NCBI GenBank assembly: GCA_947631045.1
Contig: CANRJV010000003.1
Span: 1-52,150, forward strand
From: an uncultured Bacilli bacterium
GTDB taxonomy: Bacteria; Bacillota_I; Bacilli_A; RF39; UBA660
Direction of reading: 5' to 3'
Length of the DNA stretch: 52,150 nt
Shown here: in pieces, positions 23,206 to 40,743 of the stretch
Layout of the letters: each line of letters begins with the position of its first letter
Numbering within the stretch: the first letter of the stretch is position 1
The notes under the pieces: model-generated
Databases searched by the model: none
What the model was told of the DNA's origin: nothing
The model's input: only the letters and a program-made list of their open reading frames with translations
Made by a program: the position numbers and the translations under genes

Positions 23206-23334
23206 GCAGTTTAATTAAAGCTGCTTTTTTTGTCGAAAATTGGTGAAAAAATAGAAGTTTTGACAACGTTTGTCGAAAGTGTTGAAAAGAATAAAAATAT
23301 CCGTAAAATAGAGACCTCGAAAAGAGGTGAAATT

Positions 23335-24198
23335 ATGCCCACTATGGTGAATAAAAAATTTTATGATCTAAAATATGATTTAGTTTTTAAAAGTATTATT
23401 GTAGATGATAATGATTATACTATCATGAATAATATCTTGTCGGATATCTTAGAAAAAGAAGTAAAAGTCAAAAGATATTTAAATAGTGAATTAAAAATAA
23501 AGAATAAGAAAATAAAAGGAAAAAGATTAGATATAATTGCAGAGACAACCGAAGGAGTTCTAATAAATATCGAATTAAATATAAATTATGATAAAAATAT
23601 TAAAGAAAGGAATTTAAATTATTATGCTACATTATATACAGAAGGATTAGAAAAAGGAAATGAATATATAGAGATAAAAGAAATAATCCAAATCAATTTA
23701 AATTTTAATGAAGGGAAAAATAAGACTTTAAAAGAAGAATACTTACTTCGGAATAAAGCAGGAAAGATATTAGTGAAAAATTTTAGAATCATCAATGTGA
23801 ATATTGCAGGATATAAGGAAAAATGGTATGATAAAAATATCAAAGGAGATAAGAGACATATCTACTTAACAATGCTGGGATCAAATAAAGAAGAGATAAA
23901 AGAATTAGCGAAAAAAGATAAGAAAGTAAAAGAGGTGGAAGAAAAGATGTTAAAATTTAATGAAGATGGAACAATAACAAATTTAATGACACCAGAAGAA
24001 GAGGATGCCTTAATGGAGAGAATAATAAGAAGAAATGCTTACGAAGATGGAGTTAAAAAGGGTATGAAAATGGCATCTAAAGATACTATAAAAAATACTG
24101 CTATTTCGATGATAGAAAGAAACTATCCATTAAAAGATATTTCTGAAATAACAAAATTAAGTATAAAAGAATTAAAGAAATTGCAAAAAGAAAAATAA
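23335..24198 (+). CDS. Rpn/PD-(D/E)XK nuclease family (transposase_31/PDDEXK_2-like)
   Basis: DLVFKSI, RLDII..INIE, ERNLNY, C-terminal A..M....I..IT.LS..E; ATG 23335 after GAGGTG. Confidence 0.8.
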   Translation: MPTMVNKKFYDLKYDLVFKSIIVDDNDYTIMNNILSDILEKEVKVKRYLNSELKIKNKKIKGKRLDIIAETTEGVLINIELNINYDKNIKERNLNYYATLYTEGLEKGNEYIEIKEIIQINLNFNEGKNKTLKEEYLLRNKAGKILVKNFRIINVNIAGYKEKWYDKNIKGDKRHIYLTMLGSNKEEIKELAKKDKKVKEVEEKMLKFNEDGTITNLMTPEEEDALMERIIRRNAYEDGVKKGMKMASKDTIKNTAISMIERNYPLKDISEITKLSIKELKKLQKEK

Positions 24199-31465: not shown

Positions 31466-31633
31466 ATGAAAGTAAAAGTAATTGATGAAGAATGTGAAAG
31501 AGATTTAGAAACGAGTATCAATGATTTTTTAGCCAAAGATATTGATGTAATTGATATAAAGTATCAAGTTGCTATTGGTGTAAGTGGCGAAGAGCAATTA
31601 TATTGTTTTAGTGCAATGATTATTTATCATTAA
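31466..31633 (+). CDS. cse60: Sporulation protein Cse60 (DUF2758), 55 aa, absent from the ORF track
   Basis: MKVKVIDEECERDLETSINDFLAKDIDVIDIKYQVAIGVSGEEQLYCFSAMIIYH; GGTGA RBS. Confidence 0.85.
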   Translation: MKVKVIDEECERDLETSINDFLAKDIDVIDIKYQVAIGVSGEEQLYCFSAMIIYH

Positions 31634-32565
31634 TTATTAACTAAATTAAAAGAAGTTATAAAAATATTATCTTTTAAAGTAGAATATTCCATAACTAATT
31701 TATTTTTCTTTTTAACCATAATAAGACCAATGGTAGGGTTATGATTAGATTGTTTTAACTTACGATCAATGAGGTTAGTATAAAATTCAACTTGACCAAT
31801 ATCTTGTGGTTTAAGTAAAGCATTTTTAACTTCTACCACTATGAAAGAATTAAGTAAATAATTAAAGAAAAGCATGTCTATTTTATATGTAGAATCATTA
31901 TCAATAATTTTATATTCATGTCCAATAAGGGCGAAACCCGTCCCTAATTCTAAAAATTTTTGCTCTAACATTTCGATTAATAATTTATGGATGACCTTTT
32001 CATTTAAATTATTTATATCTTTATTTGTCTTAATAATAATCGGGTCTTTAATCATATCTGATAATGTTAAATTATATTTATCCTCTTTATTAGTTATTAA
32101 TTTAATATTTTCTTTATCAGCATAAGATAATCTTTCAAAAGCATTACTTTTAATTTCATTAATTAATTCTCGACTAGAAAGATTGTTTAAAATAATTTGA
32201 TTAATGTAATAATTCCTTTCGCTTTCATTTTTGATAGGTAATAATTGCAATATGTGTGTCCATGTTAATTGGGCAATCACTGATTGCCCAATTGGAAAAG
32301 TAGTATAAAATTGTCTCATATACTTCATATTTCTTATACTATAACCATTACCATATTCTTTAGAAAATATTTCTGACCATTTTTTAATTAAGTTATCACC
32401 ATACTTAGCTCTTTTTTCTCCTCCTTGGGCTTCCATAAGTAATTTACCAATATTCCACTTAGCCATTAAATCATCATAGTTATTTTTATATTCTCTGACT
32501 CTTTTATTTACTTCTGTATTTTCAATAATACTTTTTATTTCATTAAAATAATCTTGTTCATGCAT
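31630..32565 (-). CDS. YhcG/DUF1016 PD-(D/E)XK nuclease family protein, copy 1
   Basis: WNIGK, AKYG, NMKYMRQFY, LTWTH, IKDP, LELG.GF, IDMLFF, VVEVK, GQ..FY. Confidence 0.9.
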   Translation of the reverse strand: MHEQDYFNEIKSIIENTEVNKRVREYKNNYDDLMAKWNIGKLLMEAQGGEKRAKYGDNLIKKWSEIFSKEYGNGYSIRNMKYMRQFYTTFPIGQSVIAQLTWTHILQLLPIKNESERNYYINQIILNNLSSRELINEIKSNAFERLSYADKENIKLITNKEDKYNLTLSDMIKDPIIIKTNKDINNLNEKVIHKLLIEMLEQKFLELGTGFALIGHEYKIIDNDSTYKIDMLFFNYLLNSFIVVEVKNALLKPQDIGQVEFYTNLIDRKLKQSNHNPTIGLIMVKKKNKLVMEYSTLKDNIFITSFNLVNN

Positions 32566-33681
32566 AGTAATTCCTCCAATTGAGGATGTATTATAGCAAA
32601 CATGTTATGTTTATTTTGTCATTTTTTGTCGAAGATATTAAAAAAGAAAAAATATTTCACTATTTATATTTTTTCTTTGATATTATTTAATAATTTAAAT
32701 GAAGTTATATAAATACCTTTATCATTTATATATTTCATAACATATTTATCTTTTTCTTTAACTATTAATATTCCTTCAGTCTTAGAATGATGTTCTTTTT
32801 TTATATTTTTATCTATATAATCCATATAAAATCTTACTTGACCTATTTGCGATGGTTTAAATTCTTCGTTTTTAACCTCTACAACTACATACGCATTAAT
32901 TTCTAAATTAAAGAATAATAAATCAGTGTGATAAGTTTTATTATTTATTTTTAATGGATATTCATGACCTATTAAAGCAAAACCATTACCTAATTCTAAG
33001 AACCCATCTTCAATCATTTCAATTAATAATTTATGAATAGCCTTCTCATTTAAGTTATTAATATCTTTATCTGTTTTAATAATAATGGGATCTTTAATCA
33101 TATCAGATAATGTTAAACTATAATTTTTTTCTTCATTAGTTATTAATTTAATATTTTCTTTATCAGCATAGGAAAGCCTATCAAAAGCTTTACTTTTAAT
33201 TTCATTAATTAATTCTCTTTTAGACAAATTATTTAAAATAACTTGATTAATATAATAATTCCTTTCATTTTCATTTTTAATTGGTAATAACTTAATAATA
33301 TGAGACCATGTTAATTGGGCAACCACTGGTTGCCCAATTCGAAATGAAGTATAAAATTGTCTCATATACTTCATATTTCTTATACTATAACCATTACCAT
33401 ACTCTTTAGAAAATATTTCTGACCATTTTTTAATTAATCCATCACCATATTTAGCTCTTTTTTCGCCACCTTGAGCCTCAACTAATAATTTTCCAATATT
33501 CCATTTAGCCATTAAATCATCATAATTATTTTTGTACTCTCTGACTTTTTTATTTACCTCACTGTTTTCAATAATGTTTTTTATTTCATTAAAATAATCT
33601 TGTTCATGCATAGTAATTCCTCCAATTGAAGATGTATTATATCAAACATGTTATGTTTATTTTGTCAGTTTTTGTCGAAGA
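31920..33681. repeat. Tandem duplication of yhcG including its promoter (offset about 1046 bp)
   Basis: Leaders 32562-32635 and 33608-33681 nearly identical; high similarity continues to about the GHEY codons. Confidence 0.85.
32664..33611 (-). CDS. YhcG/DUF1016 PD-(D/E)XK nuclease family protein, copy 2
   Basis: Same motifs; near-identical N-terminal two-thirds to copy 1. Confidence 0.9.
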   Translation of the reverse strand: MHEQDYFNEIKNIIENSEVNKKVREYKNNYDDLMAKWNIGKLLVEAQGGEKRAKYGDGLIKKWSEIFSKEYGNGYSIRNMKYMRQFYTSFRIGQPVVAQLTWSHIIKLLPIKNENERNYYINQVILNNLSKRELINEIKSKAFDRLSYADKENIKLITNEEKNYSLTLSDMIKDPIIIKTDKDINNLNEKAIHKLLIEMIEDGFLELGNGFALIGHEYPLKINNKTYHTDLLFFNLEINAYVVVEVKNEEFKPSQIGQVRFYMDYIDKNIKKEHHSKTEGILIVKEKDKYVMKYINDKGIYITSFKLLNNIKEKI

Positions 33682-34262: not shown

Positions 34263-36860
34263 TTAACTATTTTTGTTTCCTGGTTTTTTAGCATTTTTTC
34301 TTTGTAGTTCGTTATATTGTCTATTGATGTTTGCTTCAGTAACATCAGCAGCTTTCTTTAAATATTTAACAAAGTCTGCAGCAGTGTCCATTGTTGCTTT
34401 AGTTTCTTTGACACCTTTAAATATACCTTCGACACCGTCGTGGAATGATTTAACCACAGCAGAAGTACTTAAGTCTTCTAATTGTTTGTTTAACATGCTA
34501 ATATTTTCACTCAGAATACGAGCTTCTTGTTCTGCTCCTTTATGTGATTGAGAAGATGTAACGAAAGCATCAGCTAAATCTTTTCTGGCTTTCTTAAATG
34601 CTCCGTCTGCATCAGCAAGTTCTAACGCAGATGCTCCTTTTTTCTTTAATTCTTCAATTCTAGCTTCCATAACATCTAAACGATATCTACTTTCAAAATC
34701 TCTAAAGTCTTGCTTAATTTCTGCTGCCTGAGCATCTAATTTTTCTCTTAGTTCTTTAGCTTTATCTCTTTCTTGTTGTGATAAAGATGTATCGTTTTCT
34801 CTTTTTATGGCCTCTTGCCATTTAGCGTAGTTATTTTCAATTTCTTCAGTTATTTCTAATTTTTTACCACTAGCATCTCTTACAGCATATCCATTTTCAT
34901 CTACAAGCATTGTTCCAACTCCACCTCTAAATTCGTATTTATGCTTGTCAACGTAATCCTCACTTGTTGCTTTGATAGATTTAATAGTTTTAGTTAATTC
35001 ATCAACAGCTTCTTTTTGTTCTTTTAAAGCTTGATAATCTGGTTCAAAACCAATATAACCTAAGAATAAATCGAAAGCATCTTTGCCAAGAGCTTCAGCT
35101 ACATCTGGAATATTATTTCCGTGATCGGCAATATACTTACTAATATCTTTGCTATGTTTTTCAGATTTAGCAACCGAAGCATTTACTCCACTCATCATAT
35201 CTTTCCAGTTTTTAGCTTTATAGCCACTAACAGCAGAACCAATTTGACTTGATATTACACCTGGAATTGATTTGGCTGCACCAATAAATGGACTTGCTGC
35301 TAGTCGCAAATTAGGGTGACTAATAGGCTTACCTTCAGCATCAGTAGTTTTTCTATGCCATTTGCCTTGTTCATCTTGTTCAAAGTTATTTTTAACTTCG
35401 CCGCCAACACCTCTAGCAAATCTTTTGGCTCCGCCAAGAACAAATCCAGCTCCAGCAAAGAAACCGCCTTCGGCTAATTTTTCTCTTAAATTTAATTTAA
35501 TATTTCCTGAGTCTAAACCTGTTAAATCTTTAATAATTTTTGGAATTTGCTTAGCAAAGATAACAATACCTAAAATAGTTATTGTCGATAAGATTGGATG
35601 AGATATTCGAGAAAGTTCATCAAAATTAATTCTTCCAACTAGTAAGACTATGGCGCATACAATACCTACTCTTATAAATACCTCGAGCCAGATACTGATA
35701 ACTTTTTTAAACCAAGTTTTCATTAAATCCTTTTTGCTAGGAATAACACTTATCATAAAACATATTGGTGCCAGCATTTGATAGAAAACTAATTTAGCCT
35801 GTCTTACGACAACATCAATACAGAATCCAATTATTAATGTTACTAATATTCCGATAACAATAGTAGAAATAATAGGAGTATAATGGAAGTTTCCTTGAAC
35901 TATTTCATCAGCAAATAACGAAATTTGAGAGAAGTTTCCGTATAATGTAATTGCTTGCAAAGCATTTGTCCACGTGTATTCTTTGGCTGTAATGCTTGCA
36001 ATACCCCCGACTAGGTTCAATGCCCCAATTTGACCTACTCCACACATCAATATGGAAGCACCAACTCCCCAAGGTGTTGCAAAAATGGTTATTAATGATG
36101 AAATAATACATCCTGTAAATCCAGCCCAAAATTTAGCTTTTCCATCCCACCATTCAGAAACATCAGTTGTCCACTCTTCTTTATCGTTACATTCACTATC
36201 TGGTGTTCCTTCCTCGCAATTCCATTCTTCATAATATTTACCATCATGAACTTCAGCCATTTCCCCATCATAAGTATCAGCATCTCTTTTTAAAGGATAC
36301 ATTAATCCGCTGATAACTGTAGCAACCATTTGGTTAGATCTTAAATTCAAAATTTCGGAAGTTAAATCGATATCGGTCTCATCGATAGGAACTGGCTCTC
36401 CCTCGTTTTCGCCCTCTTCATTAACGTATTGAATATCTACCTGTTCGGCCTCTAGAATAAATTTCGGAACAACATTGTATTCCAGTAAAGCGTTTTGAAC
36501 ATCAATTAAAAAATAAAAAATAGTTGGTAAAAATATGGTTGCAATCATAGCAACGATGAATCTAATTCCCATTTCTCTAAGCTGTTTATTACTTTGACTG
36601 GCATCGGAATCGACCATAGCTTTAAGAAGCATATAAGATATTAGGAATAAGGCAACAACGCCCATAATAATATACATGTTTTCATAAATATTTTCAAAAG
36701 CATCAGCTCTAAATAATTGGTTTTGAGCAAGTCTTATAAAAGTTCTATAAAATAAATTGAAAGCCCAATAGCCAATTGAATCAATCCACAAAAGAAATGA
36801 AACGATGGGTCTTTCAAGGAAATCTCCGGCATTAAGTATACTTATAAAGTCTAACAACAT
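34263..36860 (-). CDS. VirB6/TrbL-like polytopic T4SS channel protein with long C-terminal coiled coil
   Basis: IDVVVRQAKLVFYQMLAPICFM....P, W.K..IS....VFIR, FAKQIPKII..L.G; AGGAGG RBS. Confidence 0.75.
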   Translation of the reverse strand: MLLDFISILNAGDFLERPIVSFLLWIDSIGYWAFNLFYRTFIRLAQNQLFRADAFENIYENMYIIMGVVALFLISYMLLKAMVDSDASQSNKQLREMGIRFIVAMIATIFLPTIFYFLIDVQNALLEYNVVPKFILEAEQVDIQYVNEEGENEGEPVPIDETDIDLTSEILNLRSNQMVATVISGLMYPLKRDADTYDGEMAEVHDGKYYEEWNCEEGTPDSECNDKEEWTTDVSEWWDGKAKFWAGFTGCIISSLITIFATPWGVGASILMCGVGQIGALNLVGGIASITAKEYTWTNALQAITLYGNFSQISLFADEIVQGNFHYTPIISTIVIGILVTLIIGFCIDVVVRQAKLVFYQMLAPICFMISVIPSKKDLMKTWFKKVISIWLEVFIRVGIVCAIVLLVGRINFDELSRISHPILSTITILGIVIFAKQIPKIIKDLTGLDSGNIKLNLREKLAEGGFFAGAGFVLGGAKRFARGVGGEVKNNFEQDEQGKWHRKTTDAEGKPISHPNLRLAASPFIGAAKSIPGVISSQIGSAVSGYKAKNWKDMMSGVNASVAKSEKHSKDISKYIADHGNNIPDVAEALGKDAFDLFLGYIGFEPDYQALKEQKEAVDELTKTIKSIKATSEDYVDKHKYEFRGGVGTMLVDENGYAVRDASGKKLEITEEIENNYAKWQEAIKRENDTSLSQQERDKAKELREKLDAQAAEIKQDFRDFESRYRLDVMEARIEELKKKGASALELADADGAFKKARKDLADAFVTSSQSHKGAEQEARILSENISMLNKQLEDLSTSAVVKSFHDGVEGIFKGVKETKATMDTAADFVKYLKKAADVTEANINRQYNELQRKNAKKPGNKNS

Positions 36861-37048
36861 CTTTTACCTCCTAAAATTTATATTTAGTTCTAATTTATTA
36901 TATATTTTAAGGATAAACCTCAAAAAAAGTATAACATAATTTTAAAGAAAATAATACTAGTTTTTATTTAAATCGTACTTTAATTTAATAATAAGTATTT
37001 TATTTTGATTAAATGATATGTTATAATTTTTTATAGGTAGGATTTATT

Positions 37049-38188
37049 ATGAATAAAAAAGGTTTAATTTGTTTTTTAAAATATTTTTTATTAACACTTT
37101 TTTTAAGTATTTTAACTGAAGAAAAAGTTTTAGCTGCTGATTATGAAGTGTCTTTATCTAAAGGGCATAACTATGTTTCGGTTTCCAGTTGCCCAAATTC
37201 TGAAAATAAAAAGCTTGTTTCTGGTGATGGTACAACATACTATGGATGTGTGTATCGAACATTAGGTGGCAGCGGTAGTACTTCGGGAGCTAAATGTTTA
37301 TCTGGGTATGAAGCGGTTCCTCATACTTCAAGTGATAGTAATTATACAATTTATTTATGTAGAAAGCCGAAATATGAGTATGTTGCTAAATTTGATACTA
37401 ATAAAGAATATACGAATGTTGTAAGTAATGGTTGCCCTGAGGGTCCGGGATTAGTGGGCAGAAAATTAGTTTCTTTTACTAATTATTCAAGGCAAAGATA
37501 TGCTTGCGTATATGCTAGAAATATAAATTCCAATACTCAAACTCCTTCAATTACTTGTCCAAATGGTGAAAGTGCAGTTGCTTTAGAAGCTAAAAAGGAA
37601 GGGCAATCAAGTTACAATTATACAGTTTATGCTTGTCAAAAAGCATCTTCCGGAGATGGTAGCGGAGGGTCCGGCAGTGGGGCCGGCAGCGGATCTGGCA
37701 ATGGTGGATCTGGAGCAGGATCTCAAGGAAGTGATACTGGAAGTGATAAAGAACAAGGCGGAGGTACAATAGTTCCAAACGTTGATCCTGATTGGCATTA
37801 TACACCATCAACTCCAAGCCAAAATTATGATAGCGCTTGTTCCATTGAAGGAACTAGAAAAGCTGTTCTTTTAATTGGTAAAGCGATAACTTTAGCTACT
37901 TATATTATTCCTCTTATAATTATTGTCTTAGGAATGATTGATTTTGGTAAAGCTGTTACATCTAATGATGAAAAAGCCCAATCAAAGGCAACTGGCACTT
38001 TGATTAGAAGAATAGTAGCGGGCATTGTAGTATTTTTAATACCAACTTTATTAAAAGCTTTAATAAATGTTATAAATGTTAATTCTTTAATATATGATAA
38101 AGATAATTATGATGAATGTTTAAATTGCATAATGTATCCATTTAATGATTGCGCACCAAGTCAAAGTGAGTCAAATAGTGATGATTAA
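37049..38188 (+). CDS. Signal peptide + two 4-Cys domains + Gly/Ser linker + C-terminal VirB2/TrbC-like pilin
   Basis: VLA-A signal; IIPLIIIVLGMIDFGKAVTSNDEK..SKA...LIRRIVAGIVVFLIP.LL helix-loop-helix. Confidence 0.7.
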   Translation: MNKKGLICFLKYFLLTLFLSILTEEKVLAADYEVSLSKGHNYVSVSSCPNSENKKLVSGDGTTYYGCVYRTLGGSGSTSGAKCLSGYEAVPHTSSDSNYTIYLCRKPKYEYVAKFDTNKEYTNVVSNGCPEGPGLVGRKLVSFTNYSRQRYACVYARNINSNTQTPSITCPNGESAVALEAKKEGQSSYNYTVYACQKASSGDGSGGSGSGAGSGSGNGGSGAGSQGSDTGSDKEQGGGTIVPNVDPDWHYTPSTPSQNYDSACSIEGTRKAVLLIGKAITLATYIIPLIIIVLGMIDFGKAVTSNDEKAQSKATGTLIRRIVAGIVVFLIPTLLKALINVINVNSLIYDKDNYDECLNCIMYPFNDCAPSQSESNSDD

Positions 38189-38190
38189 AT

Positions 38191-38214
38191 AAAATAGCCA
38201 TTGTGCTATTTTTT
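38191..38214 (+). terminator. Intrinsic terminator
   Basis: aaaatagc-cattgt-gctatttttt. Confidence 0.6.
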
Positions 38215-38276
38215 AATGGACTAAATAAATAGTTTTTGATAAAATGAAGATATAATAGATATGAAGGTGCTAATCT

Positions 38277-39512
38277 ATGAAAACAAAGACATATTTTAAA
38301 GTATTAATTCTATTTTTTATAATAACATTTTTAGCAGGTTGTGCTGCTAAATGGAGTGATATTAAAAGTAAGTATGGTGACTTATTAAAAAGCGGAATTA
38401 ATTGTACATATACTGCTAATTCTAATATGTTAGATGATTTAAAAACAGTGAATATTAAAGCAAATAATAATGGAATTACTGTAAAATTAAATAGTTCTAC
38501 TCATACAATAATAAGTCCAGATGTTAAATTTAATGGAACCATAAATTATAATGGTAGAAATATAAGTATTTCTAGTAGTGCTGCTCAAAGTTTTTTTGAT
38601 AAGTATGAATCTACTGGTAAGTGTCCAAATTATATTTATCTTAATACTGATGCTCAAGCTGGTTCAAGTGAATTTAGAACTGAGGATTGTACGAGAATGA
38701 GTTATTGTAGTTCATATATAAATTCATCTAGTGGTGGTACTAGTTCTAGTGGTAGTTCTAATAAATGTGAAACTAATTCTAAATGTTCTAAAGAGTGTGC
38801 CATAAATTGTAAATCTTTAGAAAAAGATAAGGATAATAGTTCTGGTAAAACCGGAATAGAATTAGGTTATTATAAAGACGGAACAAAAACTAAAAAATAT
38901 TTTTTAATCAAGAAAGCCGATAGTTCGGTTAGTAGTGGTGTAAGTATAAAAACCATTACCGAGGATGATGGCAACTGGCCAGTTATTGTTGATGATTTAG
39001 TTAGATATGAAATATTAGGAGAATCAATTAATAAAATATGGCTTGATGATAATAAAATAGGAGAAATTAAATTAACCACTAATCCTTCGATTAATGATTC
39101 CACATATTATATAGGAGATATTAATAATGATTCTATGCCAGGAACTGATATTACTGATAAGCTTAGTACAGTTAAAACTTTAATTACTATTCCATTTCCT
39201 GGAGCGGATGATTGTCAAAGTTTACTTGGAAGTCCCAATGATACGGGATCTCCGGCTTATTATTTAGTTTTTGCTTTTAAAGTAGTTAGATATGTAGCTA
39301 TAATTTTATTAATTGCATTATCAGTAATAGAATTTGTGACAGCAACAGCTAGTAGTGATCAAGAATCGATAACTAAAGCCACAAAAAAGACTATAAGAAG
39401 ATTCGTTTTATGTATAGTAATATTTGCTTTACCAACGTTATTAAATTTTGGTTTAAATTTCTTATACGATCGAAAAATGGAAGTCTGCGGAATTACACAA
39501 ACTGAAAAATAA
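38277..39512 (+). CDS. Lipoprotein-type signal (LAGC) + Cys-rich ectodomain + C-terminal VirB2-like pilin
   Basis: FLAG-C lipobox; VRYVAIILLI.LSVIEFVTATASSDQE.ITKA.KK.IRRFV...VIF.LP.LL. Confidence 0.7.
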   Translation: MKTKTYFKVLILFFIITFLAGCAAKWSDIKSKYGDLLKSGINCTYTANSNMLDDLKTVNIKANNNGITVKLNSSTHTIISPDVKFNGTINYNGRNISISSSAAQSFFDKYESTGKCPNYIYLNTDAQAGSSEFRTEDCTRMSYCSSYINSSSGGTSSSGSSNKCETNSKCSKECAINCKSLEKDKDNSSGKTGIELGYYKDGTKTKKYFLIKKADSSVSSGVSIKTITEDDGNWPVIVDDLVRYEILGESINKIWLDDNKIGEIKLTTNPSINDSTYYIGDINNDSMPGTDITDKLSTVKTLITIPFPGADDCQSLLGSPNDTGSPAYYLVFAFKVVRYVAIILLIALSVIEFVTATASSDQESITKATKKTIRRFVLCIVIFALPTLLNFGLNFLYDRKMEVCGITQTEK

Positions 39513-40698
39513 TGCTATTTATTCATCACTTTTAAACTTTCATTCATTTACACCCAATGAATATTTTGCTATAATATTTTTGTTAATTATTTTTAAACAA
39601 AAATTGAAACGTGGTGAAAAAATGAAAAATTTAAAATATCTAATATTATTAGTGATTTCCTTTTTTTTCAATGTTACAATTTTTAATGCTTATACTTGTA
39701 CTTATTCGTCTAATCAAGTAGTAGCAGATTCAACCAGTGGAACAGGTGAAAGATATTATGGATGCGGCCAATTCAAACTTACAATAGATAAAAACGGTAG
39801 CATTTCTTCAACTGTTATTTATAGTAATAGTGGTATAAAGACTGGAACGTTTGTAGTTACACAAGATTGGAAAGATTTTATAAATGGTGATTTTCATCAA
39901 GAATGTCCATCAGTTTATTCTGGTAAAGATGAAAGATATTCGTCATGTAATATATATATTGGATCCGGAAATTTGACTGACCCGAGTGACAGCAATGTTA
40001 AATATGTTTTTGATTATGGAAAAAATTCTCTTGATCCGGAAGATGAAGAGGAGGAAAAGCCGAATGTTGGTACTGATACTTATAATATAGGTGGTACTCA
40101 AGGTCATAAATATTATAATGCCTTAAGCTGTGCTAATGGTTATAGTTTAAAAAATATTTATATAAGTGCAGCTGATACAAGCGCAATTGGTTGTGTTGCC
40201 GATAAATTAACAGGAGATTATAATAATATAACTTGTCAGGCTGGTTCATCTATTGGTTATTATGGTATTAAAACTGGTGATACATCTAAACAATATCATA
40301 TTGTTGTTTGTGAAAATATAAATACTAATAAAGAAGAATTAGATGAGCAATTTCAAGGTTCAGGAAATATAACTCATGTTCAAACTATTCCATTTCCTGA
40401 TATTACTGATTGTCAAACTTTACTTGGAAGTCCCAATGATACAGGATCTCCGGCTTATTATTTAGTTTTTGCTTTTAAAGTAGTTAGATATGTAGCTATA
40501 ATTTTATTAATTGTGTTATCAGTAATAGAATTTGTGACAGCAACAGCTAGTAGTGATCAAGAATCGATAACTAAAGCCACAAAAAAGACTATAAGAAGAT
40601 TCGTTTTATGTATAGTAATATTTGCTTTACCAACGTTATTAAATTTTGGATTAAATTTCTTATACGATCGAAAAATGGAAGTCTGTGGAATTACGCAA
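39186..40698 (+). repeat. 315-bp near-identical direct repeat (39186-39500 and 40384-40698) encoding the pilin module
   Basis: Both copies run actattccatttcctg...ggaattac.caa with only scattered mismatches, mostly at the 5' edge. Confidence 0.92.
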
Positions 40699-40743
40699 TC
40701 AGGAATTAATACTAGTGAAAATGAAGGTGCTGGAAGCCAATAG
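39622..40743 (+). CDS. Signal peptide + Cys-rich ectodomains + C-terminal VirB2-like pilin
   Basis: ATG 39622 after GGTGA; FNA-Y signal; pilin module almost identical to that of the upstream gene. Confidence 0.7.
   Translation: MKNLKYLILLVISFFFNVTIFNAYTCTYSSNQVVADSTSGTGERYYGCGQFKLTIDKNGSISSTVIYSNSGIKTGTFVVTQDWKDFINGDFHQECPSVYSGKDERYSSCNIYIGSGNLTDPSDSNVKYVFDYGKNSLDPEDEEEEKPNVGTDTYNIGGTQGHKYYNALSCANGYSLKNIYISAADTSAIGCVADKLTGDYNNITCQAGSSIGYYGIKTGDTSKQYHIVVCENINTNKEELDEQFQGSGNITHVQTIPFPDITDCQTLLGSPNDTGSPAYYLVFAFKVVRYVAIILLIVLSVIEFVTATASSDQESITKATKKTIRRFVLCIVIFALPTLLNFGLNFLYDRKMEVCGITQSGINTSENEGAGSQ

Follow-up and report, generated by a model that had tools for sequence, protein, structure and literature searches.

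Tandem type IV secretion genes of an uncultured gut Bacilli bacterium carry unrelated ectodomains on a homogenised, putatively VirB2-like C-terminal module

A stretch of 52,150 nucleotides from an uncultured Bacilli bacterium (assembly GCA_947631045.1, contig CANRJV010000003.1, positions 1 to 52,150; hereafter the window) contains a chromosomal type IV secretion system (T4SS) locus, in which two adjacent genes, A and B, end in an almost identical module of 105 residues and begin with unrelated N-terminal parts. We propose, with a probability of roughly two in three, that A and B are tandem T4SS paralogs whose exchangeable ectodomains are carried on a VirB2-like module, which is homogenised by gene conversion and would serve as the interface to the T4SS. 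The proposal draws on the DNA-level uniformity of the module within genomes, on the replacement of ectodomain segments between close relatives, and on the company that the module genes keep. The positions of all features are collected in Table 1.

Results and Discussion

A direct repeat encoding a constant C-terminal module

The 3′ coding regions of genes A and B match at 301 of 315 bases (39186–39500 versus 40384–40698; 96%, E = 2e-144), and a repeat search of the window returned them as direct copies at 39209–39507 and 40407–40705 with 97% identity and a spacing of 1198. Identical codons were found for 96 of the 100 residues that the two modules share, so that synonymous sites are homogenised as well. 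This agrees with the initial annotation, which had described the 315-bp block as near-identical even at synonymous sites and the regions upstream of it as unlike; the upstream parts, 303 amino acids (aa) in A and 254 aa in B, gave no significant BLASTP match to each other (best E = 2.7). The further genome copies for which it had suggested a search were not found at the DNA level. The genome of the window (G000; 1,313,112 bases in 81 contigs, 93% complete, ~27% G+C) holds only the two copies, both in the window and both in complete genes, and a protein-level search of G000 added three distant module genes only.

DNA identity between A and B opens at ACTATTCC (TIPFP) and stops after CGITQ, where the tails diverge into TEK and a stop codon in A and SGINTSENEGAGSQ and a stop codon in B. 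Of the abrupt boundaries that had been proposed at these two motifs, the end at CGITQ stands and the start is refined. A 7-nucleotide (nt) unconverted patch (39202–39208) lies directly after TIPFP, encoding GAD in gene A and DIT in gene B, which places the homogenised tract proper at approximately 39209–39500. Other sites that tell the two copies apart are 39316/39317, 39452, 39488 and 39497, each with its partner 1198 nt downstream. Between genomes, moreover, homology restarts not at TIPFP itself but ~21 nt 5′ of it, at 40362–40365 (motif GNITHVQ). The overall arrangement, a constant C-terminal module behind unrelated N-terminal domains, was borne out in the window and in two further genomes of the same genus, G007 and G009.

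Concerted evolution of the module

G000, G007 and G009 each possess two A/B-type modules. The two modules of one genome agree at 301 (G000), 303 (G009) and 300 (G007) of 315 nucleotides (95–96%), compared with 234–253 of 315 (74–80%) between genomes. Same-residue codons are identical in 91–96% of cases within genomes versus 64–65% for orthologous pairs, and the synonymous divergence (dS) of the modules by the Nei–Gojobori method is 0.09–0.14 within genomes and 0.85–0.89 between orthologs; the dS of VirB4 between these species is 0.37–0.51. G000 and G007 have orthologous A ectodomains (78% aa and 82% nt identity), which also agree in position and in both flanking intergenic regions, and the B ectodomain is common to G000 and G009 (47% aa identity), so that the genes predate the species splits. 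Modules thus group by genome while ectodomains group by type, which is a signature of gene conversion. The patch after TIPFP in G000 retains the lineage state, namely GA as in the A-type gene of G007 and D-I like the D-V/D-I of G009, and the 5′ boundary of the converted tract is thereby marked. Taken together, the alignments show a module whose near-identity is maintained by recurrent gene conversion (concerted evolution) within each genome. Among further multi-copy genomes, the G013 pair is 83% identical, copies a–c of G023 are 87–92% identical with copy d at 70–73%, and the pair in locus L065 is 92.7% identical on unrelated N-termini.

The same uniformity might have arisen with no conversion at all, if the module or the whole gene had recently been duplicated in each lineage independently and the copy had then gained a new N-terminus. 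Such duplication also predicts that paralogs are closest within their own genome, as they are in all five multi-copy genomes examined, and it suits a copy number that varies from 1 to 4. It is nevertheless improbable, since the A and B genes predate the splits, as seen from their orthologous ectodomains and flanks, and yet their modules group by genome; the 7-nt patch with its lineage state, which marks the end of a conversion tract in G000, also argues against it.

Replacement of ectodomain segments between relatives

Upstream of A lies a third module-bearing gene, gene 0, and the arrays read 0, A, B in G000; 0, A, D in G007; and 0′, B′, C in G009. A blastn comparison of the G000 and G007 arrays gave continuous homology over 36865–39642, which takes in gene 0, gene A including its module, the stretch between A and B, and gene B up to its nt 21. 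It restarts over 40365–41147, from 19 nt before TIPFP into the VirB3-like gene. Between these conserved arms lie unrelated ectodomain segments of 722 bp and 602 bp, and the promoter-like site and ribosome-binding site of the intergenic region are conserved in G007 ahead of ectodomain D. Between G000 and G009, homology extends up to 38256, which is 21 nt before the start of gene A; G009 continues after this gene 0–A-type intergenic region with a B-type ectodomain that contains an extra insert of ~85 aa. The last slot of G009 holds a new ectodomain type, C, behind which homology with G000 restarts at 40362. The cassette breakpoints are accordingly located ~21 nt into the open reading frame (ORF) and ~21 nt before TIPFP. 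In P0004, a protein of 454 aa from a public assembly, all 105 of 105 module residues agree with gene B, the GNITHVQTIPFP junction (GNITHVQTIPFPDITDC) is the same and the tail is B-like, whereas its first 329 residues are of type C (70.5% identical to G009_p3). One and the same module is hence found on two different ectodomains in very close relatives.

The comparison shows that the ectodomain segment has been replaced as a unit between close relatives, with the conserved intergenic region plus the first ~7 codons as its 5′ border and the module edge as its 3′ border. Every species accordingly has a particular set of ectodomains, borne on a uniform module that is likewise particular to it. The N-terminal replacement near TIPFP that had been anticipated is therefore found across the three genomes, at the 5′ edge of the module. 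The ectodomain types are rare across 42 genomes of the genus, types A and B having been detected in 3 genomes each and types C and D in 1 each (E ≤ 1e-5). A region search with the B ectodomain recovered gene B alone, and in the JGI metagenomes an exact 35-nt module pattern had 0 matches and a protein-guided scan gave 368 pattern matches, of which 0 were confirmed. The dN/dS ratio (nonsynonymous to synonymous divergence) was 0.24–0.39 for ectodomains versus 0.01–0.02 for VirB4.

The module as a putative pilin

The sequence of the module shows two hydrophobic helices that are separated by a Lys/Arg-rich loop, with one conserved Cys ahead of the first helix and another behind the second. An AlphaFold2 (AF2) model of the module alone (29-row alignment; predicted local distance difference test, pLDDT, 77.7) has helices at 23–56 and 59–104, and the short loop between the helices carries K64, K67, K68, R71 and R72. 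C101, R72 and P83 are invariant in this alignment, and C10 is present in at least 90% of the rows. Sequence and model together give the architecture of the T4SS_pilin type, in which two hydrophobic helices with a short charged loop between them come after a signal peptide. The two conserved Cys (Cys313 and Cys404 of gene A; region given as 39313 and 39404) flank the hairpin on its predicted outer face. With the ectodomain outside, the loop would be cytoplasmic and both Cys would lie outside, where a disulfide bond closing the hairpin is possible. A Cys-closed hairpin of this kind would resemble the head-to-tail cyclised VirB2/TrbC.

The gathering threshold of the Pfam family T4SS_pilin (PF18895) is 26.6 bits. 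A stand-alone 119-aa pilin on contig C31 of G000 scores 26.7 bits and so exceeds it, and gene 0 scored 24.1 bits as a protein and 28 bits in a six-frame search. When the A/B module was used as the query in its own genome, it reached the C31 pilin (E = 1.8e-9), gene 0 (2.5e-9) and a gene on contig C26 (9.6e-9); over 64 aa, the modules of gene 0 and gene B share 39% identity (E = 3e-12). In addition, the module genes stand beside VirB3-, VirB4- and VirB6-like genes. Transitive homology, hairpin architecture and gene neighbourhood together point to the A/B module as a signal-peptide-dependent, two-helix, VirB2-like pilin module, for which polymerisation is putative. The pilin-like family of Mbov_0395 from the integrative conjugative element (ICE) of Mycoplasma (NF045849) was not reached at its 40-bit cut-off by A (18.1 bits) or B (18.9 bits).

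The C26 gene (L005:595–1812) encodes 405 aa with a gene 0-type module; its neighbours on either side are sigma-70-family genes, and the T4SS locus is far away. The C-terminal 144 aa of gene 0 are 66% identical to this protein, which has a different N-terminus. Gene 0 and the C26 gene make up a second constant/variable pair, which is not homogenised at the DNA level.

A generic two-helix C-terminal membrane anchor with no link to the T4SS would also look like this module, and its uniformity would then be a by-product of the tandem arrangement. An anchor of that kind would be expected neither to pass the PF18895 threshold, as the A/B module does not, nor to match solved pilins in structure, and it could well occur on a protein such as that of C26. 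We judge it unlikely on several grounds. Module genes are located directly upstream of VirB3/VirB4 in the loci of 59 of 80 species, as anchored on VirB4, and 13 of the other 21 loci have less than 3.6 kb of sequence upstream of VirB4. The single 137–155-aa form found there in distant species resembles a classical prepilin, the module is homologous to a protein that passes the T4SS_pilin threshold, and it has weak NCBIfam matches to the pilin-like protein preceding VirB4 in mycoplasma ICEs.

Distribution of the architecture

Counted as representatives of 50%-identity clusters, the matches to the module number 1675 at E ≤ 1e-3 and 369 at E ≤ 1e-10. In 164 proteins examined, the module occupies the extreme C-terminus (median of 3 aa after it and 272 before), and 14 of these proteins are short prepilin-like forms. 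The 150 N-terminal parts of at least 60 aa fell into 37 BLAST components, and only 420 of 11,175 pairs showed any match. More distant species often have a single short form (137–155 aa) of the same module type, which suggests that the long ectodomain fusions are derived. In most other species (L047–L126), the nearest module gene ends ~3.1–3.5 kb before the VirB4 ATPase ORF, versus 0.94 kb in the window; those species thus seem to have an extra gene that separates VirB3/VirB4 from the pilin genes.

Polymorphism, switching and assembly support

Variants of A and B within 90%-identity clusters differ from the window at five residues, and three of the five (A315 S/T, A347 A/V and B298 V/A) take the state of the other paralog. 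One contig from a public run likewise has a copy B with the letters of copy A at 40514/40515 and 40650. The paralog-state variants would fit ongoing conversion, for which they are suggestive only.

Programmed variation at high frequency would go further, with recombination through the constant block switching the displayed or expressed ectodomain within one clone. Tandem direct repeats of this length and identity could provide the substrate, the letters of the other paralog in strain variants and in one contig could be its traces, and gene B may have a promoter of its own. The genomic setting makes such a programme a poor candidate. G000 contains no silent or partial cassettes, and both copies are complete and in the same orientation; the inverted repeats of 36000–43000 are AT-rich, at most 85% complementary and in no case situated at the cassette borders; and the ORFs scanned from 23230 to 51998 contained no recombinase domain. 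No 1198-bp deletion joint, circle or chimera was seen in the contigs of four runs, though contigs drop rare variants. Furthermore, recombination between tandem direct repeats can delete, duplicate or convert, not swap. Two known forms of switching lack support on the same observations: silent-cassette variation of the pilE/pilS type, as the 93%-complete genome has no promoterless partial copies, and a shufflon or other invertible segment, as neither flanking inverted repeats nor a nearby recombinase are present. A contig of public run X2 matches the window to exactly 39186, the module boundary, and continues with 255 letters of unlike sequence; it may stem from a relative that is arranged differently, or the match may end there by chance.

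The assembly, which the initial annotation had advised to verify with spanning reads, was checked on public contigs. Independent contigs of public runs, which may derive from the source sample, cross each unique/repeat junction (38792–39275, 39458–40473 and 40656–41200), and a contig from a different study spans 39822–40514. A collapsed or wrongly duplicated region is a natural worry in a short-read metagenome-assembled genome (MAG) whose repeat interior is covered by a short shared contig, and it is nevertheless very improbable here, given the crossed junctions, the contig of the different study that joins the B ectodomain to the module, the 14 positions at which the two copies differ, and the same architecture found independently in G007, G009, G013, G023 and L065.

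Proposed mechanism and the points against it

In the mechanism that we propose, each of A and B would be exported as a Cys-rich ectodomain on a C-terminal VirB2-like module, A being a lipoprotein as well. The module would dock into, or polymerise on, the VirB3/VirB4/VirB6-like machine, and because it would be the interface shared with the machine or with other subunits, all paralogs would have to present the same module. The ectodomains would be exchangeable binding parts on the cell or pilus surface, through which target cells or surfaces in the gut are recognised. DNA of related strains may replace a cassette by using the uniform module and the conserved region upstream as homology arms, and unequal exchange between tandem copies may expand or contract the array. 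We infer from this a function as exchangeable adhesins on a T4SS scaffold, and antigenic or host-range variation would be a conceivable consequence. A more specific picture, in which the polymerising or docking module is a display scaffold and large, fast-evolving, disulfide-rich receptor-binding cassettes are exchanged between strains like the tips of phage tail fibres, is an analogy that we put forward tentatively and consider rather doubtful. If it were true, these bacteria would depend on specific contact with bacterial or host cells, and the cassette repertoire would set their range of partners.

The initial annotation had already invoked recombination or gene conversion through the constant block as the process that swaps the displayed domains. 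Homogenisation of the module and replacement of the N-terminal segment between relatives are in line with it, and the reservoir that swapping within one genome would draw on is missing. Its label of a pilin fared similarly, being favoured by transitive homology and context and falling short at the PF18895 threshold.

A number of observations weigh against our proposal. Genes A and B had no PF18895 match at E ≤ 0.01, the A/B module being below the threshold, and that family matched only 2 of 29 aligned modules or short pilins at E ≤ 0.01. A profile search of Protein Data Bank (PDB) sequences with the module gave only noise at the level of rhodopsins, and Foldseek and VIA-align returned only generic helical hairpins for it. 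Homogenisation is far from general: the 80 VirB4-anchored loci contain 53 within-locus module pairs, of which only 2 reach at least 90% identity, one of them being G009 again, one is at ~80%, and the others are at 42–69%, as in ordinary divergent pilin arrays. Mis-phasing by short-read assemblers inside the 315-bp repeat could account for the paralog-state variants and for the letters at 40514/40515 and 40650. Homology among the ectodomain types received no support from hhalign (A-family profile versus B, D and C; probabilities of 1–4%), and no family, fold or binding partner was found for any ectodomain.

Organisation of the genes and of the T4SS locus

Table 1. Positions of the module-bearing genes, their parts and the neighbouring T4SS genes in the window.
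Feature	Position	Strand	Basis
VirB6-like (CD3337/EF1877-type) polytopic membrane protein, 865 aa, divergent from the pilin-fusion genes	34263..36860	−	NCBIfam, synteny
Gene 0, 379 aa: Cys-framed repeat ectodomain, Gly/Ser linker and second, PF18895-type putative pilin module	37049..38188	+	PF18895, BLAST
Gene A, 411 aa: lipoprotein signal (LAGC, Cys22), A-type ectodomain (38343–39185), constant module	38277..39512	+	ORF, alignment, AF2
Constant module copy 1 (TIPFP...CGITQ)	39186..39500	+	Repeat and alignment; AF2 of module alone
A–B intergenic region: promoter-like site 39547–39575 and ribosome-binding site; candidate 5′ homology arm of gene B cassette	39513..39621	+	Site scan, conservation in G007
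Gene B, 373 aa: Sec signal peptide, B-type ectodomain, constant module, 14-aa tail	39622..40743	+	ORF
Replaceable ectodomain cassette of gene B	39643..40364	+	blastn versus G007, unrelated 602-bp segment between conserved flanks
Constant module copy 2	40384..40698	+	Repeat and alignment
VirB3/TcpE-like small membrane protein, 107 aa	40825..41148	+	Pfam TcpE 19.1 bits, below cut-off of 29.9
VirB4 N-terminal domain, separate 187-aa ORF	41120..41683	+	NCBIfam VirB4_plasma positions 97–276, E 7e-15
VirB4 ATPase, 594 aa	41683..43467	+	NCBIfam VirB4_plasma 335.8 bits

The lipobox of gene A is retained in 8 of 9 aligned relatives. For gene B, a longer alternative ORF starts at TTG 39580; the ATG at 39622, which the initial annotation had also chosen, is most likely the start and lies behind a ribosome-binding site of the AGAGGTGA type. 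The AF2 model of gene A (9-row alignment, pLDDT 68) is composed of two beta-rich domains (41–149 and 175–281), a disordered linker (297–311) and a helical hairpin (326–359/362–398). The promoter-like site between A and B reads TTTACA-17-TG-TATAAT, with 11 of 12 consensus positions plus TG, and promoter-like sites in the region are not above shuffled controls (28 versus 29.0). The promoter/terminator scan called no terminator-like site on the plus strand between A and B; a hairpin with a T-run is discernible by eye at ~39545–39575.

A weak Cys-framed repeat with C...G..Y..C units is present in the ectodomains of gene 0 (37049–37750) and gene B (40090–40330), which are 28% identical in it over 93 aa (E = 7e-4). 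By eye, and with no statistical support, the A, C and D ectodomains share a frame with C-[TE]-Y near their start and C-P-x-x-[ILV]-Y ~70–90 aa further on, which is less clear in B. The A and B ectodomains had no Pfam or NCBIfam match, six ectodomains had none in PHROGs, and the ESM Atlas yielded no usable ectodomain match. Foldseek found no match of the gene A model in the PDB at E ≤ 0.001, and in a wide VIA-align search only the helical hairpin was matched, the beta domains being barely probed.

The locus runs from the VirB6-like gene through three module-bearing genes and the VirB3-like gene to a split VirB4. The 865-aa protein scores 18 bits on NCBIfam CD3337_EF1877, below the cut-off of 120, and has no Pfam match; its gene is syntenic in G007 and G009 with 73–89% aa identity. 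The VirB3-like ORF aligns to positions 2–97 of NCBIfam VirB4_plasma, and VirB4 is encoded in three successive ORFs (107, 187 and 594 aa; 40825–43467), which overlap at 41120–41148 and in an ATGA at 41683. The 594-aa ORF contains the Pfam domains AAA_10, P-loop_TraG and CagE_TrbE_VirB above their cut-offs, and VirB4 is 99% identical in aa across G000, G007 and G009. The 187-aa/594-aa split is also present in G007 and G009, and because an open frame of ~594–620 aa is seen across the order, the split is natural and not a pseudogene; for mycoplasma ICEs, the NCBIfam model gives an undivided VirB4 of ~894 aa.

In G007 and G009, the gene order is kept from SufB to the DUF1016 nucleases, with VirB4 in its split form, three module genes and then the VirB6-like gene in between, and the housekeeping flanks are retained on both the SufB side and the DUF1016 nuclease/pyrophosphatase side. 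The nucleases adjoining the locus in the window are encoded by tandem paralogous DUF1016_N/YhcG PD-(D/E)XK genes on the minus strand (31630–32565 and 32664–33611); G009 has two such genes as well, and one is visible in the portion of G007 that was covered. A PD-(D/E)XK-family transposase-like gene (23230–24198) and a DDE transposase gene (50688–51998) each lie ~8–10 kb from the T4SS locus, and neither is linked to the repeat. A type IV coupling protein (T4CP, 753 aa), a GDSL/M23/lysozyme hydrolase (913 aa) and a 305-aa protein are encoded together among housekeeping genes on contig C13 (L044:1699–7681).

Relaxases of the MOBV type only were found in G000, on contigs C25 and C37; the relaxase profiles PF03432, PF02486 and PF08751 had no match in this 93%-complete genome, and no relaxase or integrase was found beside the T4SS locus. 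In a sample of 201 genomes from the order, 192 contained a relative of VirB4, mostly at 66–91% identity, and these cover 93 of 98 genera. In a search of species-representative genomes, the best 80 of 520 VirB4 matches came from gut MAGs, of animal and human origin, that belong to uncultured Bacilli, ‘Tenericutes’ or Mycoplasmatota, and the nine public runs that contain the stretch are gut metagenomes with no RNA run among them. A conjugative element (ICE or plasmid) was rejected as the bearer of this T4SS, since the T4CP is located elsewhere, no relaxase or integrase is linked, synteny is kept in three species and VirB4 is near-universal. The T4SS is a core chromosomal, vertically inherited feature of a family of gut Bacilli with reduced genomes.

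Comparison with known systems

T4SS pilins are normally small proteins, and at this locus the adhesin-like and pilin-like parts form one polypeptide. A full-text literature search found no description of this system. The locus is a natural example of a putative display scaffold that gene conversion keeps uniform, and the comparative data place the exchange points of its cassettes to within ~20 nt. It thereby offers a testable model for the choice of contact partners in an uncultured gut lineage with a reduced genome. According to PMC12102498, monoderm T4SSs are usually described as being without VirB2 and as using separate adhesins.

The closest parallels are the Trw arrays of Bartonella and the chromosomal T4SS pilin arrays of Patescibacteria. 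In Bartonella, according to PMC2610397, the Trw T4SS includes tandem arrays of variants of trwL (virB2) and trwJ (virB5), which are surface-exposed pilus components, and both diversifying selection and concerted evolution are reported for it, with Nystedt et al. 2008 cited therein. Both systems involve tandemly multiplied surface pilus components of a chromosomal T4SS that are thought to diversify the binding of target cells. In Bartonella, however, whole small pilin genes vary, whereas here a uniform module carries unrelated ectodomains of ~210–340 aa and the ectodomain segment is replaced. The present system also belongs to a monoderm gut Bacilli lineage, with a machine resembling the mating-pair formation class MPF-FATA and a T4CP encoded elsewhere in the genome. 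For Patescibacteria, PMC12102498 describes chromosomal, mostly relaxase-less T4SSs with arrays of 2–11 VirB2-like genes (PF04956/PF18895) near virB4; the pilins share a mean of 25% and a maximum of 54% aa identity, and an adaptation to host range is proposed. On that description, reduced genomes, a chromosomal, widely conserved T4SS of the monoderm type and pilin genes near virB4 are common to both, and the family-wide conservation of the machine parallels Patescibacteria as well. It suggests that chromosomal T4SSs serving something other than plasmid transfer are more widespread among small-genome, host-associated bacteria. The patescibacterial pilins are, so described, highly divergent, whereas the present modules are 95% identical in aa, homogenised, fused to long ectodomains and found in a Bacilli lineage.

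The pilE/pilS system of Neisseria belongs to a type IV pilus; silent cassettes without promoters act as its donors, and the constant part is located at the N-terminus. Gene conversion likewise acts there on a pilin with a constant part and a variable displayed part. Unlike in Neisseria, the system here is a T4SS with no silent copies, and conversion homogenises the constant part rather than diversifying the variable one. In the R64 shufflon, the PilV tip adhesin receives alternative C-termini as the recombinase Rci inverts segments between short repeats. It combines, as here, a constant assembly part with alternative target-recognition parts, which in R64 set partner specificity in conjugation, and it is functionally the closest model of how the present system may work. 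Flanking inverted repeats and a recombinase are absent here, however, the polarity is the opposite one, and each alternative is a full gene of its own. R64 thin pili are also mentioned in PMC12102498.

The Mycoplasma ICE backbone consists of Mbov_0395 (pilin-like), Mbov_0396 (transmembrane protein) and Mbov_0397 (VirB4), and in both cases one or more pilin-like proteins are followed by VirB4. Its VirB4 is the best NCBIfam match of the present one (335.8 bits) and the A/B modules match Mbov_0395/0396 weakly, all of these scores being below the family cut-offs. Unlike that element, the present locus is not on a mobile element and has its VirB4 in three ORFs, whereas the mycoplasma pilin-like protein has 80 aa and no ectodomain. 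The present locus differs from the known arrays in that large unrelated ectodomains are fused to the pilin module, this module is homogenised, the boundaries of the cassettes have been mapped, and the lineage is another one.

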